In this document: positions 2,740-7,253 of the stretch, piece after piece | Layout: the number at the start of each line of letters is the position of its first letter | Position numbering within the stretch: position 1 is the stretch's first letter | DNA from: a virus | Reading direction: 5' to 3' (one strand) | DNA: 7,253 nucleotides | IMG/VR virus record: IMGVR_UViG_2885989707_000002 | Span: 1 to 7,253 of that record | Program-made: the position numbers and the translations under genes | Notes under the pieces: generated by a model | Told to the model about the DNA's origin: nothing | Seen by the model: the letters and a program-made list of their open reading frames with translations, nothing else | Databases searched by the model: none

Positions 2740-3078
2740 ATGCTTCTTCTGACCGGTCTCTGCCATGGCTACAAAGTTAACAAGCGCATTGTTGGCCAAA
2801 ACGAGTTCGTCGATCACCTGATTCTGCTGGAAGTCCAGGACCTGAATCAGTACGGCATCGCCGAAACCAAAACCGCAAGTATCAAGCTGGCCAAGGCTGA
2901 TATCGAAAACGGTGTCCAGCATCAATACGACGCTCTGAAAGGCAAGTCTGTAAGTGTGCCCGTCCGCGTCGGCCCCTGGGCATCCAAGGCCGGTAATGCC
3001 GGTTTCGACTACTGGATTTCCGGCGACCGTAAGCCAGTCAACATGCAAATCCGTCAGCAAGTAGCGGCGGCTAGCTAA
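2740..3078 (+). CDS. Putative ssDNA-binding protein (gene V positional analogue), 112 aa
   Basis: GAGGTGA at 2727-2733 precedes ATG 2740. It lies downstream of the replication gene and upstream of the coat genes, and is soluble and beta-rich-looking. The call rests on synteny only; I see no recognisable similarity to Ff gpV. Confidence 0.5.
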   Translation: MLLLTGLCHGYKVNKRIVGQNEFVDHLILLEVQDLNQYGIAETKTASIKLAKADIENGVQHQYDALKGKSVSVPVRVGPWASKAGNAGFDYWISGDRKPVNMQIRQQVAAAS

Positions 3079-3374: not shown

Positions 3375-3509
3375 ATGGAAGAAGTTCTCGCCTCGATCAC
3401 TGGCGGTCAAATCGCTGCTGCTGTAACCGCGCTGATGATCGTTGTTGTCGGTATCGCCATGGCCTTCCAGGGTGGCACCGTCGGCAAGCGCGTCGTCAAG
3501 AAGATCTAA
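3375..3509 (+). CDS. gVIII: Major coat protein, 44 aa, no signal peptide (Pf3-like class)
   Basis: AGGAG at 3362-3366 lies 8 nt upstream of the ATG. The product is MEEVLASITGGQIAAAVTALMIVVVGIAMAFQGGTVGKRVVKKI. It has an acidic N-terminus, a hydrophobic core and a C-terminus with four basic residues. A strong terminator follows, as with Ff gVIII. Confidence 0.8.
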   Translation: MEEVLASITGGQIAAAVTALMIVVVGIAMAFQGGTVGKRVVKKI

Positions 3510-3562: not shown

Positions 3563-3682
3563 ATGGAAACGTCAATTGCAATAACATCCTCCGATATCGC
3601 CTTCTTCGTATATTCGGTGGTGTTTCTCGCCGGAGTAATAATCGGATGGGCATTCGTAATCGGTACACAACAGCGGTTCTAA
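3563..3682 (+). CDS. 39-aa hydrophobic peptide, possible minor coat protein (METSIAITSSDIAFFVYSVVFLAGVIIGWAFVIGTQQRF)
   Basis: Not in the ORF track. It has a single TM helix and lies between gVIII and gIII, where some inoviruses carry a tiny ORF. It has no SD, starts at the edge of the terminator T-run and overlaps the gIII start by 37 nt in another frame. Confidence 0.35.
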   Translation: METSIAITSSDIAFFVYSVVFLAGVIIGWAFVIGTQQRF

Positions 3683-5076
3683 TCGCCTGCCTCTTTAGCG
3701 CCTCATTCGCAGGCGCTGCCACCCGCAAAAACGTAGATAATATGCCTCGCCGATCCGATGTCATTAATGGCGGCGGTTCCGGCTTCCAGACGCCAAATGG
3801 CGAGCATGCTTTTTACGGTCGCGACCACGTTGATACGCACACTGCGGGCAATAGATTCAATGCTGGTGACAATCCCGGCGGCTCTGATCGCCGTCAAAAG
3901 ATAACTGTTAAGCCCAGGGTTAACTTGAATCCAAAGACTGTTGCCGGTGCTGCTGGCAACTTCTTTAAGAGCTTGCCTAAAGGCGGTGCTGCCGGTCTTG
4001 CTGCTGGTGGTGCAATGCAGGCAATGCTAGACGCCATTGATGCCGTTATGGACCCTGCTAACAATACAATTCAGGTTCCATCTTTTTCAGAACCGTCCAC
4101 AAAGCCAGGCGATTATTACTGGCATGTCGATAACTTCCAATCTCCAAGCCCTAAGAAGGCTTGCGAGAATTACTATGCAGACAAGTCATCTACCTGGACT
4201 TATCCGATTCACTCTGTCGAGGTGGTGTTTGCCAGTGAGTCACAGGGATTCTGTCAGGGTATTTCCTACGGAACCCAGTACTCTGACGCTGTTTGGCGTC
4301 AAGGTACTGGCTGTTCCGGGACATATAACTCTTCCACTGGTGAATGCCTTGTTTCCTCCGGTTATCGTGATGTAACCCAGTCTGATTTCGATTCTATGGA
4401 AAAATGGGCTGCTGATCAGAATTCAGATTTCATACGCGACCTTTTGAAAGAGAACTGCGCAGGCTCTCCAAGCCCTTTGGCATGTATCGACGAACTTAGC
4501 GAGTGGGGCGACATGCTCGGCCCATCTTCTGCTGTTGGGCCTAAGGAAACTACTACGACCACTACAAAGAACCCTGACGGCACTGTCTCCACCACGTCAA
4601 CCAGCACGCAGAACACATATAACTACAGCTTCGGGCCGACCTATTACAATTACAGCACGACCACCAAAAAGACAGTAACCAACGCTGATGGCAGTGTTTC
4701 AGAGTCTGAGGCCAGTGACGGTGGTCTATCTCCAGGCAATGAAAAGCCAGAGAATGAAGAGCCGAGTTATTCGTTCGAGGATTCGGAGTTCCCTAAGGTC
4801 GATCCGTTCTATGAGCAGAAATACCCAGATGGCTTAGAAGGCGTTTGGAACGACATAAAGGCAAAGATTGACAGCTCTGCATTCATTCAGTTTCTTCAAG
4901 GGTTCATTCCAAACTTCTCTGGAAGTTGCCCTAGCTTCAGCCTCAACCTGAATATTGGGCCGTTTGATCTCGGCGTTCAGAATCTTCCTAGTGTGTGTTA
5001 TGCCTTGGACTTCGTTAAGGTCATCTTGCTATTCACCGCCGTTATGACATTCCGCGCACTGGTATTCGGGGGTTAA
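3646..5076 (+). CDS. gIII: Minor coat / host adsorption protein (gIII-like), 476 aa
   Basis: GGAG at 3632-3635. The signal peptide MGIRNRYTTAVLIACLFSASFAGA has a likely cleavage site after AGA. Cys-containing N-terminal domains are followed by an Ala/Gly-rich stretch and a Thr/Ser-rich linker (ETTTTTTKNPDGTVSTTSTST..), then a C-terminal hydrophobic anchor (FVKVILLFTAVMTFRALVFGG). It is the largest structural ORF and precedes gVI/gI. Confidence 0.8.
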   Translation: MGIRNRYTTAVLIACLFSASFAGAATRKNVDNMPRRSDVINGGGSGFQTPNGEHAFYGRDHVDTHTAGNRFNAGDNPGGSDRRQKITVKPRVNLNPKTVAGAAGNFFKSLPKGGAAGLAAGGAMQAMLDAIDAVMDPANNTIQVPSFSEPSTKPGDYYWHVDNFQSPSPKKACENYYADKSSTWTYPIHSVEVVFASESQGFCQGISYGTQYSDAVWRQGTGCSGTYNSSTGECLVSSGYRDVTQSDFDSMEKWAADQNSDFIRDLLKENCAGSPSPLACIDELSEWGDMLGPSSAVGPKETTTTTTKNPDGTVSTTSTSTQNTYNYSFGPTYYNYSTTTKKTVTNADGSVSESEASDGGLSPGNEKPENEEPSYSFEDSEFPKVDPFYEQKYPDGLEGVWNDIKAKIDSSAFIQFLQGFIPNFSGSCPSFSLNLNIGPFDLGVQNLPSVCYALDFVKVILLFTAVMTFRALVFGG

Positions 5077-5077
5077 C

Positions 5078-5416
5078 ATGGCCGGCATATTCCAGTTCTT
5101 CACCACCATACTTGCCAAGATCGTCAACTTCGCCAAGTGGCTTCTCGCTGTATTCAAGCAAGTCTTTGTTGATTGCTGGAATATATTTACCGACTTGTTT
5201 TGCTGGGGATTTGAATCCGTTCTTGGCATTGCGGTCGGCGCTCTAAACATGATTGCCATCCCATTCAACCCGCAAACCTACTTTGCACTGATACCGCCAG
5301 ATGTAGCGAACGTTATGGGCTACATTGGTGTTCCCCAGGGCGCTGCGATAGTTGTTTCGGGCTTAATTATCCGCTTCACGCTTCAAACCATTCCGTTCGT
5401 TCGCTGGGGTTCCTGA
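5078..5416 (+). CDS. gVI: Minor coat protein gVI-like (DUF2523-like membrane protein), 112 aa
   Basis: Starts 1 nt after the gIII stop. It is a multi-TM hydrophobic protein the same length as Ff gpVI, and sits immediately upstream of, and overlapping (ATGA), the Zot-like gene. Confidence 0.7.
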   Translation: MAGIFQFFTTILAKIVNFAKWLLAVFKQVFVDCWNIFTDLFCWGFESVLGIAVGALNMIAIPFNPQTYFALIPPDVANVMGYIGVPQGAAIVVSGLIIRFTLQTIPFVRWGS

Positions 5417-6570
5417 TGATTAACTTGATGCTGGGCGCCCCTGGTGGCGGTAAGTCGTATGAGTCTGTTGTTTATCATGTGCTGCCAGCGCTCAATCGCG
5501 GGCGCAAGATTATTACCAACTTGCCCCTCAATCTCGATGCCCTGGAAGCGTTCTGCCCTGGCACACGCCACTTGGTTGAGATCAGAACCGAGAAGTTCGA
5601 CGGCGGGCTTATTCGCCCCTTTTCGCGTGTCGAGCACTTCGGCGACGACTGGCGGCATGAGACTGAGGGCAATGTTGGCCCTCTCTATCTGATCGACGAA
5701 TGTCATTTGGCATTGCCACTTCGCGGAACTGATATAGCCATTGAAGAATGGTTTTCCCTTCACCGGCACGAAGGGGCCGATGTTCTGTTGATCACGCAAA
5801 GTTACGGCAAAATCAATAAGGCCATCCGCGACCTGGTGCAGATGGTTTACCTCTGCCGCAAAGCAACCATGCTCGGCTCGAACAGTCACTACATTCGCAA
5901 GGTTAAAGATGGTTTGCGTGGTGCTGAGGTCAACTCGGCTATTCGCAAGTACGAGAAGCGCTATTTTCCGTTGTATCGGAGCCACACGAAGTCCAGCTCG
6001 GCAGTTGAGGAATTCGAGGCTAGTGACGTGCGTTCCATCTGGTCAGGCTGGCACTTTCGTGGTGCCGTCCTTTGCCTTCTCGTTGGCCCGCTTTGGCTGT
6101 TCTGGCTCTATTCCGGCGACAGCGAAGCCAAGGTCGCAAAGCAGCCTGAGAACGTCAGCACAACGGTCACCGTCGAGCACGTTGACGGCACGGTCGAGAC
6201 GACCACTACGGGGCCAGATCTGCACGCTGATGTTCCGGCAGAGGAATCCCATGAGCAAGGGCAGGGGAGTGAGCCCCCGCCGCCCCCAAGCCATCCATTC
6301 TCTGGCTATACGTTCTTCCTGAGCGCCCAGATGTACACCAAGCGAGAATCTGGCGAGTATCACAAGGGTTACGTCGCTCTCGCGCAAAACGGCGTTGTAG
6401 TCCGTCAGATCCCTTTCGACGACTTGCGAGAAGCCGGCTACGTGATCACCTATCGGTCGCCGTCCGTTATCAGCGTGACATTCGACGGCAAAGACCTGGG
6501 CTATGTCGTATCCGCGCTACCTCAGATCTCGATGACGCCAGCCAACCAGATAGGGAAAACCGGCGGTTAA
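5416..6570 (+). CDS. gI: Assembly ATPase gI / zonula occludens toxin (Zot) family protein, 384 aa
   Basis: N-terminal Walker A GAPGGGKS (residues 7-14) and Walker B-like PLYLIDECH (89-97). A single TM helix AVLCLLVGPLWLFWLY spans about residues 217-232. The C-terminal periplasmic domain has a PPPPP tract. Its position after gVI is canonical. Confidence 0.92.
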   Translation: MINLMLGAPGGGKSYESVVYHVLPALNRGRKIITNLPLNLDALEAFCPGTRHLVEIRTEKFDGGLIRPFSRVEHFGDDWRHETEGNVGPLYLIDECHLALPLRGTDIAIEEWFSLHRHEGADVLLITQSYGKINKAIRDLVQMVYLCRKATMLGSNSHYIRKVKDGLRGAEVNSAIRKYEKRYFPLYRSHTKSSSAVEEFEASDVRSIWSGWHFRGAVLCLLVGPLWLFWLYSGDSEAKVAKQPENVSTTVTVEHVDGTVETTTTGPDLHADVPAEESHEQGQGSEPPPPPSHPFSGYTFFLSAQMYTKRESGEYHKGYVALAQNGVVVRQIPFDDLREAGYVITYRSPSVISVTFDGKDLGYVVSALPQISMTPANQIGKTGG

Positions 6571-6607
6571 ACGGGAGGGCTCCCGCTTGCGGGAGGGACC
6601 CGTTTAA
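6567..6607 (+). other. Strong compound hairpin at the gI stop codon; candidate terminator, packaging signal or minus-strand origin element
   Basis: The outer stem TTAAACGGG / CCCGTTTAA is 9 bp. It encloses the inner stem CTCCCG-cttg-CGGGAG (6 bp). GGGAGGG occurs on both flanks. No T-run follows. Confidence 0.5.
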
Positions 6608-6739
6608 ACGTCCGCGTTTGACCCGCTCGGCAGTGTCTGTCACCTCCGGGCTCCACAGTGCACGCAACCACGACACCACGGCTCTAGGCCCCGCGTATCA
6701 AGCACCCTGATAACATCGCCGAAACGATAAGGGGGCTTA

Positions 6740-6753
6740 TGCATGGGCATGCA
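6740..6753. promoter_or_regulatory. Operator-like inverted repeat TGCATG-gg-CATGCA overlapping the start codon of the 62-aa ORF
   Basis: It has the same TGCATG/CATGCA half-sites as the tracts at 1098-1107 and 1163-1178, and lies at the head of the accessory cassette. Confidence 0.4.
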
Positions 6754-6931
6754 AGATAGGGATTGGTATCGGAACGAACGGCGTAAGCAACGACAGCAAC
6801 ACCAGGCTACTCAACATCAACCCGAACCCTCGACTTCATCAGCAAGCCCGCCAGGATTCACCAGCGCAGCAGCTATAGGCTCGCTACTCGCCGCGCTTAT
6901 CGTCGTCCTGATCGGCTTTGCATTCATCTGA
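6743..6931 (+). CDS. Hypothetical 62-aa C-tail-anchored membrane protein
   Basis: AGGGGG at 6729-6734 lies 8 nt upstream of the ATG. The N-terminus is basic and Gln-rich (MGMQDRDWYRNERRKQRQQHQ). A Pro/Ser linker leads to a C-terminal TM helix (AAIGSLLAALIVVLIGFAFI). Confidence 0.5.
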   Translation: MGMQDRDWYRNERRKQRQQHQATQHQPEPSTSSASPPGFTSAAAIGSLLAALIVVLIGFAFI

Positions 6932-6940
6932 GAACTGACC

Positions 6941-7138
6941 ATGCCTGACTTCATCAAGCTGACAGCGCCTGACGGCGTCGTGATCGAAGCGCCGGTCGAT
7001 GGTTGGCGTACCTGCGACTGCGGTGTGCTGGGCTTGGCTGACGGCTCGAACTGGTGCGATGACTGCAAGGAACGCTTTGAGCGCTCATGGGATGAATGCT
7101 TTGATTCTGCGGGTCGTCCGCCTCAGGCTGATTCCTAG
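6941..7138 (+). CDS. Hypothetical 65-aa Cys-rich (CxC..CxxC..C) acidic protein
   Basis: Open frame with moderately high GC3. Five Cys residues sit in TCDCGVLGLADGSNWCDDCKERFERSWDEC. The SD is weak, and the stop codon abuts the dif-like site. Confidence 0.45.
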   Translation: MPDFIKLTAPDGVVIEAPVDGWRTCDCGVLGLADGSNWCDDCKERFERSWDECFDSAGRPPQADS

Positions 7139-7232
7139 GCTTCGCATAATGAACAGGGATTCATGGTTAATGCCGTCCGGAAGATCGCGCCGATCCGGGC
7201 GGCATTGATCCATAATCCCCGTTATGCGAACG
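7139..7232 (+). other. Candidate XerC/XerD-dependent attP: two inverted dif-like sites able to fold into an imperfect hairpin of about 90 nt
   Basis: Site 1 (+, 7139-7171) reads GCTTCGCATAA-tgaacagggat-TCATGGTTAAT. Site 2 (read on the minus strand of 7205-7232, equal to 32-59) reads CGTTCGCATAA-cgggga-TTATGGATCAA. Compare E. coli dif GGTGCGCATAA-TGTATA-TTATGTTAAAT. The XerC-type arm TTCGCATAA is exact in both copies. Confidence 0.55.
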
Positions 7233-7253
7233 CCCCTCGACATCCCCACGCAC
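7174..7253. repeat. Terminal direct repeat, copy 2 (identical to 1..80)
   Basis: Same 80 nt as the window start. It includes the first 30 nt of the ORF that starts at 51. Confidence 0.97.

Follow-up and report, generated by a model that had tools for sequence, protein, structure and literature searches.

The window analysed here, a 7,253-nucleotide (nt) stretch of viral DNA (IMG/VR record IMGVR_UViG_2885989707_000002), holds a circular genome of 7,173 nt plus an 80-nt overlap, bases 1–80 being equal to 7174–7253. Judged by its sequence it is an inovirus genome with an Ff-like gene set, all of it on the + strand. At 7138–7234 (+) lies a forked hairpin formed by two inverted sites that resemble dif, the host site at which XerC and XerD resolve chromosome dimers. 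We regard this hairpin as probably a phage attachment site of the CTXφ type, an attP(+) which is absent from duplex DNA and arises through folding of the packaged (+) single strand. The attP(+) of CTXφ itself, in Vibrio cholerae, was reportedly described by Val et al. in 2005 and is covered by two reviews (PMC4246890, PMC3089051). Three features of the CTX type are found together in the window: the lack of any recombinase gene, a pair of inverted dif-like sites of which one has a long and the other a short spacer, and a predicted (+)-strand forked hairpin.

An initial annotation, made from the DNA letters without database searches, had proposed this architecture and had noted that no tyrosine or serine recombinase is encoded. 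Pfam and PHROGs scans bear out the latter, giving no recombinase, integrase or transposase match in any open reading frame (ORF) of at least 98 amino acids (aa) on either strand, nor in the small ORFs. The architecture is upheld by the 10/6-nt asymmetry of the two spacers, by covariation and strand bias in relatives, and by a control array from V. cholerae (NC_015209).

Two inverted dif-like sites and their predicted fold

The 9-mer TTCGCATAA, identical to the core of the Pseudomonas dif XerC arm, occurs at 7141–7149 (+) and its reverse complement TTATGCGAA at 7222–7230, repeated at 49–57 through the overlap, exactly where the initial annotation had placed them. These three matches compare with 0.07 expected, and three were reached in 0/200 shuffles. 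Site 1, which resembles attP1 of CTXφ, runs along the + strand as a XerC arm (GCTTCGCATAA, 7139–7149), an extended central region of 10 nt (TGAACAGGGA, 7150–7159), supported by the fold, the spacers of the family and CTXφ attP1, and one half of a XerD-arm duplex (TTCATGGTTAA, 7160–7170, with C7162 bulged), which pairs with 7205–7215 in a helix that covaries in the family. Site 2, which is attP2-like, lies on the − strand and reads TTCGCATAA-CGGGGA-TTATGGATCAA. It consists of a XerC arm (CGTTCGCATAA, 7222–7232), the central region CGGGGA (7216–7221) and a XerD arm (TTATGGATCAA, 7205–7215) in which the inner TTATG is conserved and 6 of 11 positions match TTATGTTAAAT. With its perfect XerC core and 6-nt spacer, it is the best dif-like 28-mer in the window; a second printed copy of it stands at 32–59 (−) in the terminal overlap. 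Between the two sites, the distal stem and apical loop (7171–7204, +) appear to act as a structural spacer, unrelated in sequence among relatives but with the pairing kept.

The XerD-type arms had been described as lying at a dif-like distance from both XerC arms. This is true of site 2, with the 6-nt spacing of dif, but not of site 1, in which TTCATGGTTAA starts 10 nt and TCATGGTTAAT 11 nt past the XerC arm, a long spacing that is itself a hallmark of the CTX type.

Folded as single-stranded DNA (ssDNA), 7130–7240 reaches a minimum free energy of −32.9 kcal/mol, compared with −16.5 ± 2.6 kcal/mol in shuffles (z −6.3; 0/200 as good), with pair probabilities of 0.75–1.0 over the hairpin, and homologous hairpins are found in relatives. 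The resulting 97-nt forked hairpin is the largest inverted repeat of the genome. Residues 7138–7151 pair with 7220–7234, giving the XerC-arm duplex extended by T·G and G-C pairs; T7150 and G7151 pair weakly, and AACA (7152–7155) forms an unpaired bubble. GGGATT (7156–7161) then pairs with AATCCC (7214–7219), bringing the GGGA of site 1 opposite TCCC, and beyond the bulged C7162 an ATGG/CCAT pairing leads through an imperfect stretch into a G+C-rich distal stem. The other motifs listed for the region are likewise present (TCATGGTTAAT at 7161; TTGATCCATAA, the reverse complement of TTATGGATCAA, at 7205; GGGATT at 7156; AATCCC at 7214; GATCGCGCCGATC at 7183), and the pair list is as originally described. 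The small apical hairpin GATCG-cgc-CGATC, also singled out at the time, does exist as the motif GATCGCGCCGATC, but it is not conserved in relatives, in which the apex is a variable loop, and we reject it as a functional element.

Both ends of the contig (window positions 1 and 7253) are located in the apical loop of the hairpin, whose 3′ arm is spanned by the terminal overlap of 80 nt. The palindrome is probably where the assembly broke, and the circular-looking contig may represent either an episome or tandem prophages that have been collapsed into one.

Conservation and prophage junctions in relatives

The gII protein, which served as the marker for collecting relatives, has hundreds of them, many on chromosome-sized contigs of Stutzerimonas and Pseudomonas. 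The window and 150 loci, taken from fetched contigs and from gII-alignment scans of genomes and IMG/VR, make up a set of 151 sequences that was searched by regular expression for an inverted CG[CT]ATAA...TTAT[GA]CG pair, 45–140 nt apart. An inverted XerC-arm pair is present in 102/151 of these loci of the same gII type. Hairpin length in the family ranges from 81 to 152 nt, and the spacer asymmetry is general: among 90 unique hairpins the site 2 spacer is 6–7 nt in 87 and the site 1 spacer 9–13 nt in 82. Aeromonas and Oceanisphaera members of the gII family carry the CTXφ arm variants (TTATGTTGAGG, TTATGTTACGG) and, again like CTXφ, a hairpin of ∼148 nt.

Covariation was assessed on an alignment of 34 hairpins of 81–87 nt, whose consensus structure comprises three helices with 28 pairs. 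Paired cells amount to 96.3%, compared with 30–41% when the partners are slid by 1–3 columns, and both sides have changed in a compensatory manner in 144 cells, compared with 10–27 in the slid controls; double changes occur at 13 of the 28 pairs. The three helices behave differently. The XerC-arm helix is invariant across the 34 hairpins; the XerD-arm helix keeps TTAYG yet covaries, with for example T-A replaced by C-G in 17/34; and the distal helix covaries freely, with both sides changing at 8 of its 11 pairs. Two relatives, the metagenomic phage L002 and the prophage L138, have the TTATGG XerD-arm subtype in common with the window, and within this subtype GGGATT/AATCCC of the window becomes GAGATT/AATCTC in L002 and CGGATT/AATCCG in L138, so that the changes are again compensatory.

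The same hairpins indicate which strand folds. Among the paired cells that depart from Watson-Crick geometry, G·T is found 92 times and A·C 3 times, and in 78/90 the + strand forms the more stable hairpin of the two strands (mean −3.9 kcal/mol; Wilcoxon p 2e-14). Both the excess of G·T over A·C and the greater stability point to folding of the gene-sense (+) strand; no such bias would be expected of a purely duplex palindrome. Inoviruses package their gene-sense strand.

The location of prophage copies had been set beforehand, in the initial annotation, as an observation that could refute the CTX-type proposal. In relatives the outcome favours the proposal: their prophage copies occupy dif, the junction coincides exactly with the XerC arm of the site on the + strand, and a dif is regenerated on the other side. 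Both junctions are resolved in ∼15 loci (for example L006, L008, L011, L012/13, L019, L021, L022, L053, L067, L090, L093, L097, L101, L113 and L138), which belong to Stutzerimonas, Pseudomonas, Aeromonas, Acinetobacter and uncultured hosts. The layout is uniform among the prophages. At the left boundary, host flank and XerC arm are followed by the site 1 spacer and hairpin. Between the copies of an array, phage flank and XerC arm are followed by the site 1 spacer. At the right boundary, phage flank and XerC arm are followed by T(G/C)TATA TTATGTTAAAT, so that a canonical 28-bp dif is regenerated. In the S. stutzeri chromosome CP140298 (L008), where the array is located at ∼2.24 of 4.57 Mb, the three junctions read ATATCATGTGAG TTCGCATAA/TGGCCT... 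on the left, GGGGCGC TTCGCATAA/TGGCCT... between copies and GGGGCGC TTCGCATAA/TCTATA TTATGTTAAAT on the right (the slash marks the join). Two loci narrow down the crossover: L006 and L022 carry a host arm, TTCGTATAA, on the left and the phage arm, TTCGCATAA, on the right, and because the host and phage variants are distributed in this way the crossover must lie within ATAA/T, the XerC cleavage position.

Tandem arrays of 2–3 copies are common, as in L008/9, L010/11, L012/13, L014 and L015. Judged by gII, the integrated relatives nearest to the window are those of P. mangiferae (94% aa identity) and Pseudomonas sp. LRF_L74 (92%), each of them a tandem array with the same boundary. L138, which has the motif GGATTCATGG as well as the TTATGG-type XerD arm in common with the window, is a single prophage between cellular genes whose right end reads TTCGCATAA TGTATA TTATGTTAAAC; its own XerD arm, TTATGGCTGAA, is as degenerate as that of the window, yet it is integrated at a canonical dif.

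The arm and central-region sequences can also be compared with host dif sites. TTCGCATAA forms the XerC arm in all Pseudomonas and Stutzerimonas attR sites, and the dif of P. aeruginosa PAO1, GATTCGCATAATGTATATTATGTTAAAT, carries it in its XerC arm (PMC2731167). The central region of site 1 begins nearly always with T, as does that of dif. The first two bases of the local dif are matched by site 1 in 7/20 loci and by site 2 in 9/20; beyond the first base any pairing rule for the central region thus appears to be loose.

As a positive control, the same scripts were applied to the CTXφ/RS1 prophage array NC_015209. They recover a 12-nt-spacer site on the + strand at attL (TGCGCATTA/TGTGGCGCGGCA TTATGTTGAGG), an inverted 7-nt-spacer site (TGCGTATTA TACGCCA TTATGTTACGG) and dif1 at the right end, a layout that agrees with the published attP1 and attP2 (PMC3089051). 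It also fits the published account in which integration of CTXφ leaves one functional dif and two non-functional sites (PMC3089051, PMC4246890).

Further elements were observed at these loci. Arrays of non-identical elements occupy a single dif in L067 (4967 and 9457), L131 (3537 and 10661) and L142 (3304 and 10524), successive copies differing in hairpin or spacer, as in the mixed V. cholerae arrays of integrative mobile elements exploiting Xer (IMEX). One S. stutzeri phage has an additional, directly repeated XerC-arm site, GCGC TTCGCATAA TGGACA TCATGTCTCTG, 234 nt upstream of the hairpin (L003, 15671 and 15905; L004, 7637 and 205), possibly a scar left when adjacent prophages of an array formed a hybrid. 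In Phocoenobacter atlanticus (L041, 9045–11605) and Glaesserella australis (L035, 5247–7890), elements of ∼2.5 kb that end at a canonical dif lack morphogenesis genes and contain nothing more than gII, the attP hairpin, one small ORF and a divergent ORF that resembles a repressor gene; they look like RS1-type mini-satellites, and the 2.5–3.5-kb Pasteurellaceae contigs L026, L027, L037 and L042 may be of the same kind.

Proposed mode of integration and alternative explanations

In the mechanism that we propose, site 1 (7139–7170, +) and site 2 (7205–7232, −) would anneal on the packaged strand to give a duplex XerC arm (TTCGCATAA/TTATGCGAA), the AACA bubble and an imperfect duplex XerD arm, with the distal stem-loop serving as a structural element that lengthens the hairpin. 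Host XerC and XerD would bind this folded pseudo-dif, and XerC is predicted to cut the site 1 strand between A7149 and T7150 and to exchange it with the top strand of dif, which in Pseudomonas reads GATTCGCATAA TGTATA TTATGTTAAAT. Replication would then convert the pseudo-Holliday junction into a double-stranded prophage. Its left end would be a dead hybrid site, with the host XerC arm and the 10-nt spacer, and its right end a regenerated functional dif, with the phage XerC arm and the central region and XerD arm of the host; for the window phage the expected junctions are attL ...TTCGCATAA/TGAACAGGGATTCATGG and attR ...TTCCTAGGCTTCGCATAA/T(G/C)TATATTATGTTAAAT. The regenerated dif could accept further copies, giving tandem arrays, and rolling-circle replication by gII on such arrays would make new (+) strands that could fold into attP(+) in their turn, so that gII would supply the ssDNA substrate. 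Since the attP site exists only in ssDNA, the prophage would be locked in. We infer catalysis by XerC alone, a single-stranded substrate, replicative resolution, irreversibility and integration of the window phage itself from analogy with CTXφ.

Several points weigh against this interpretation. No integrated copy was found of the window phage or of its nearest relative L002; each is known as a circular contig, and when metagenome contigs were scanned for the exact pattern of the site 1 that the two represent (CGCATAATGAACNGRGATTCATGG), there were 0 matches. The XerD arm of the window is degenerate, with 5/11 mismatches to TTATGTTAAAT, and its site 2 central region begins with CG, whereas that of most relatives begins with T. 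The host arm compared is that of the PAO1 dif and of the genus rather than that of strain PA15(2017), the source of an identical Zot protein. The + and − strands of the window itself fold almost equally well (−32.9 and −32.1 kcal/mol), which makes the strand bias evidence at the level of the family. That the XerC-arm helix is invariant follows in part from the search pattern, which requires CG[CT]ATAA...TTAT[GA]CG, and the hairpin sequences are phylogenetically related, so that the counts of paired cells are counts of non-independent events. Finally, computation cannot tell ssDNA from double-stranded DNA as the substrate.

This last point bears on the alternative that best survives, in which double-stranded site 1 alone recombines on the replicative form and the pairing is kept for a packaging signal or a minus-strand origin. 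The crossover at site 1 in all the prophages fits either substrate, and the hairpin is placed after the morphogenesis genes, which is where Ff phages keep their packaging signal. A duplex site 1 would, however, have to recombine across a 9–13-nt spacer, and its partner arm is a second dif-like site that has kept the canonical 6–7-nt spacing in nearly all the hairpins. In CTXφ the equivalent site, attP1, reportedly cannot recombine in duplex form (PMC4246890). A packaging or origin function by itself leaves the dif-like arms and the junctions unexplained, as it does the fact that the arms stay dif-like while the distal stem drifts, and for packaging or termination another strong hairpin is available at 6557–6619. 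We therefore judge duplex integration through site 1 to be unlikely. It is possible that the hairpin has a dual role, as attP and as packaging signal or minus-strand origin, but none of the observations needs it.

The window phage might, alternatively, no longer integrate at all, its hairpin being a decaying relic of an attP, or only a packaging signal or origin, and its life episomal. Circular, episome-like contigs are the only ones seen for the window and L002, and the XerD arm of the window is degenerate. An array of tandem prophages assembled from short reads would, however, likewise be reduced to a contig that looks circular, and L138 has integrated at a canonical dif with the equally degenerate arm TTATGGCTGAA. 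The XerC arms of the window are moreover perfect, and compensatory changes have been kept within its subtype. Loss of integration appears, on this evidence, quite improbable.

Still further from the data is an attP of the VGJφ type, in which site 2 alone would recombine with dif as a duplex. Site 2 is a natural candidate, being the closest look-alike of the 28-bp dif in the window, with a perfect XerC core and a 6-nt spacer. Its use would, however, turn the prophage round with respect to dif and cut the hairpin in two, with a left junction made up of a host XerC arm and CGGGGATTATGGATCAA, whereas every resolved prophage of a relative has its junction at the site with the 9–13-nt spacer and retains the hairpin intact inside, including the site with the 6–7-nt spacer; the central region CGGGGA, in addition, has no similarity to TGTATA. 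This possibility we reject as extremely improbable.

IMEX of the TLC type use XerD-first exchange, an attP that lacks the XerD arm and the Xer activation factor XafT (DUF3653). An attP of that kind was rejected, the crossover being at the border of XerC arm and central region and the small ORFs giving no match to DUF3653 or any other Pfam family. A chance palindrome is ruled out by the shuffles, the covariation and the junction data, and a terminator or a σ70 promoter for the adjacent 76-aa ORF finds no support, since promoter and terminator scans of 6560–7253 found nothing.

Genome context and known Xer-dependent phages

The attP(+) candidate lies in a genome whose Ff-like gene set, on the + strand, was assigned by Pfam and PHROGs scans: the rolling-circle replication initiator gII (1198–2493; Phage_CRI, 2.2e-48, and G2P_X_C, 1.5e-13), gV (2740–3078), the major coat protein (3375–3509), a gIII-like protein (3646–5076), gVI (DUF2523; 5078–5416) and Zot/gI (5416–6570). 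A protein of Pseudomonas sp. PA15(2017) matches Zot with 100% identity, from which we conclude that the host genus is Pseudomonas; the best non-self match of Zot is 68%. The genome is strongly mosaic. The gII protein has 92–95% aa identity to those of the prophages of P. mangiferae and Pseudomonas sp. LRF_L74 and of phage L002, and the morphogenesis genes and attP region are not common to the window and the arrays L014 and L015 at the DNA level. By megablast against phage records the sole similarity is to gII of blackswan219-1. Scans of genome and viral contigs with the single Zot protein found no relative, and exact-product look-ups for the window Zot, gII and P0121 returned no contig.

Two other features of the genome were observed. 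Repeated TGCATGCATG palindromes at 1095–1178, between gII and a divergent 75-aa ORF (847–1074, −; phrog_5642), are probably operator sites for a phage repressor; relatives have an HTH_3 repressor at the position of this ORF. Directly after the zot stop codon, a strong G+C-rich hairpin (6557–6619; ssDNA ΔG −22.1 kcal/mol, z −3.3), which has no T-run, is a candidate packaging signal or terminator.

The 76-aa ORF (51–281, +, equivalent to 7224 onward) is a member of a genuine family of phage proteins whose function is unknown (phrog_13909, E 2.9e-34). Its start codon, at 51–53 (7224–7226), lies within TTATGCGAA, the XerC arm of site 2, as had been pointed out, and a homologue begins at the same embedded ATG in 39 of the 90 unique hairpins. 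A single-sequence AlphaFold model of the protein comprises one short helix and one 52-residue helix (predicted local distance difference test score, pLDDT, 85). No σ70 promoter was predicted upstream of the ORF in the scan of 6560–7253, which suggests that it is possibly read through from the zot operon; the prophage copy next to attL would lose the upstream phage operon, and with it this read-through. Translation could be gated by hairpin formation, XerC binding or integration state. Whether through such gating or as a Xer accessory or activation factor like XafT/XafV, a functional coupling of the 76-aa protein to the attachment site is conceivable, if doubtful.

CTXφ and the window phage both lack an integrase, and both have inverted dif-like sites with a long spacer on the + strand (12 nt in CTXφ, 10 nt in the window) and a short one on the − strand (7 and 6 nt). 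In each case the model is a forked hairpin in which the XerC arm is fully duplex, a bubble occupies the centre and the XerD arm is imperfectly paired. In the prophages of the window's relatives, as in those of CTXφ, the crossover lies past the XerC arm of the site with the long spacer, the right end carries a regenerated dif, and copies are arranged in tandem. In contrast to CTXφ, the window hairpin is shorter (∼97 nt compared with ∼150 nt), its XerC arm is of the Pseudomonas type (TTCGCATAA rather than TGCGTATTA), its XerD arm is more degenerate, and it is known from sequence alone. The window phage also has an Ff-like gII (Phage_CRI) rather than RstA, carries no toxin genes, and has the conserved 76-aa ORF that starts inside site 2.

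Among known elements that exploit Xer, the VGJφ-type IMEX are likewise integrase-less inoviruses that integrate at dif by XerC-first exchange; this class includes Xanthomonas Cf1c, φLf and XacF1. They differ in having a single duplex dif-like attP with a central region of ∼6–7 bp and in that both prophage ends stay competent for Xer, whereas the predicted crossover site of the window has a 10-nt spacer and needs an inverted partner. Integron attC sites are also used only as folded single strands by a tyrosine recombinase, with replicative resolution (PMC4792948); they differ in their dedicated integrase IntI, in lacking dif-like arms and in that the strand used is the bottom strand of cassettes.

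That inoviruses integrate at dif, and do so in tandem, is widely known (PMC7307601). For CUS-1Φ of E. coli and YpfΦ of Yersinia pestis, attP features for direct ssDNA integration at dif have been reported (PMC3089051), together with tandem integration (PMC7307601), and the CTX-type design is therefore already known outside Vibrio. These are enterobacterial hosts and phages, and the likeness to the window is drawn from their published description. In the literature searched, no paper describing the CTX-type design in Pseudomonas or Stutzerimonas was found; a 2020 survey of Pf prophages covers only those that carry an integrase (PMC7549136).

Closer to the window are the integrase-less filamentous prophages of P. 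aeruginosa groups 4–7, for which a 2023 paper annotated an 11–12-bp repeat and left the integration mechanism open (PMC10675462). The gII proteins of these prophages (42-1 and 97-1) and of the free phage NEU2023 are 60–63% identical in aa sequence to that of the window. The same hairpin is present at the left prophage end in 42-1 and 97-1 and after zot in NEU2023, although it is longer (112–113 nt) and has a TTACGT-type XerD arm. The 42-1 and 97-1 records start and end at TTCGCATAATG(T), and the repeats annotated there as 'repeat_region' (42-1, L152, OR621020, 1–12 and 7407–7418; 97-1, L153, OR621023, 1–11 and 6644–6654) are the core of the dif XerC arm with 2–3 central bases. Because their end repeats are this core, both can be re-read as CTX-type elements integrated at dif.

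The CTX-type design is established, and nothing in the present analysis is conceptually new; its added value is evidence that compact modules of this type are widespread. Single-strand Xer-dependent integration is extended from CTXφ, CUS-1Φ and YpfΦ to inoviruses of Pseudomonas and Stutzerimonas, and the same signature adds relatives from Haemophilus, Aeromonas, Acinetobacter and further genera. The module offers a concrete mechanism for the integrase-less P. aeruginosa prophages, and a rule for delimiting prophages, namely an inverted pair of XerC arms with spacers of 9–13 and 6–7 nt, which predicts orientation, tandem arrays and likely irreversibility, while the arm sequence aids in guessing the host. 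It may be that a very large clade of Ff-like inoviruses, spread over many genera, and RS1-like mini-satellites generally integrate by means of compact CTX-type hairpins; CTXφ would then exemplify a common strategy and not one peculiar to Vibrio.

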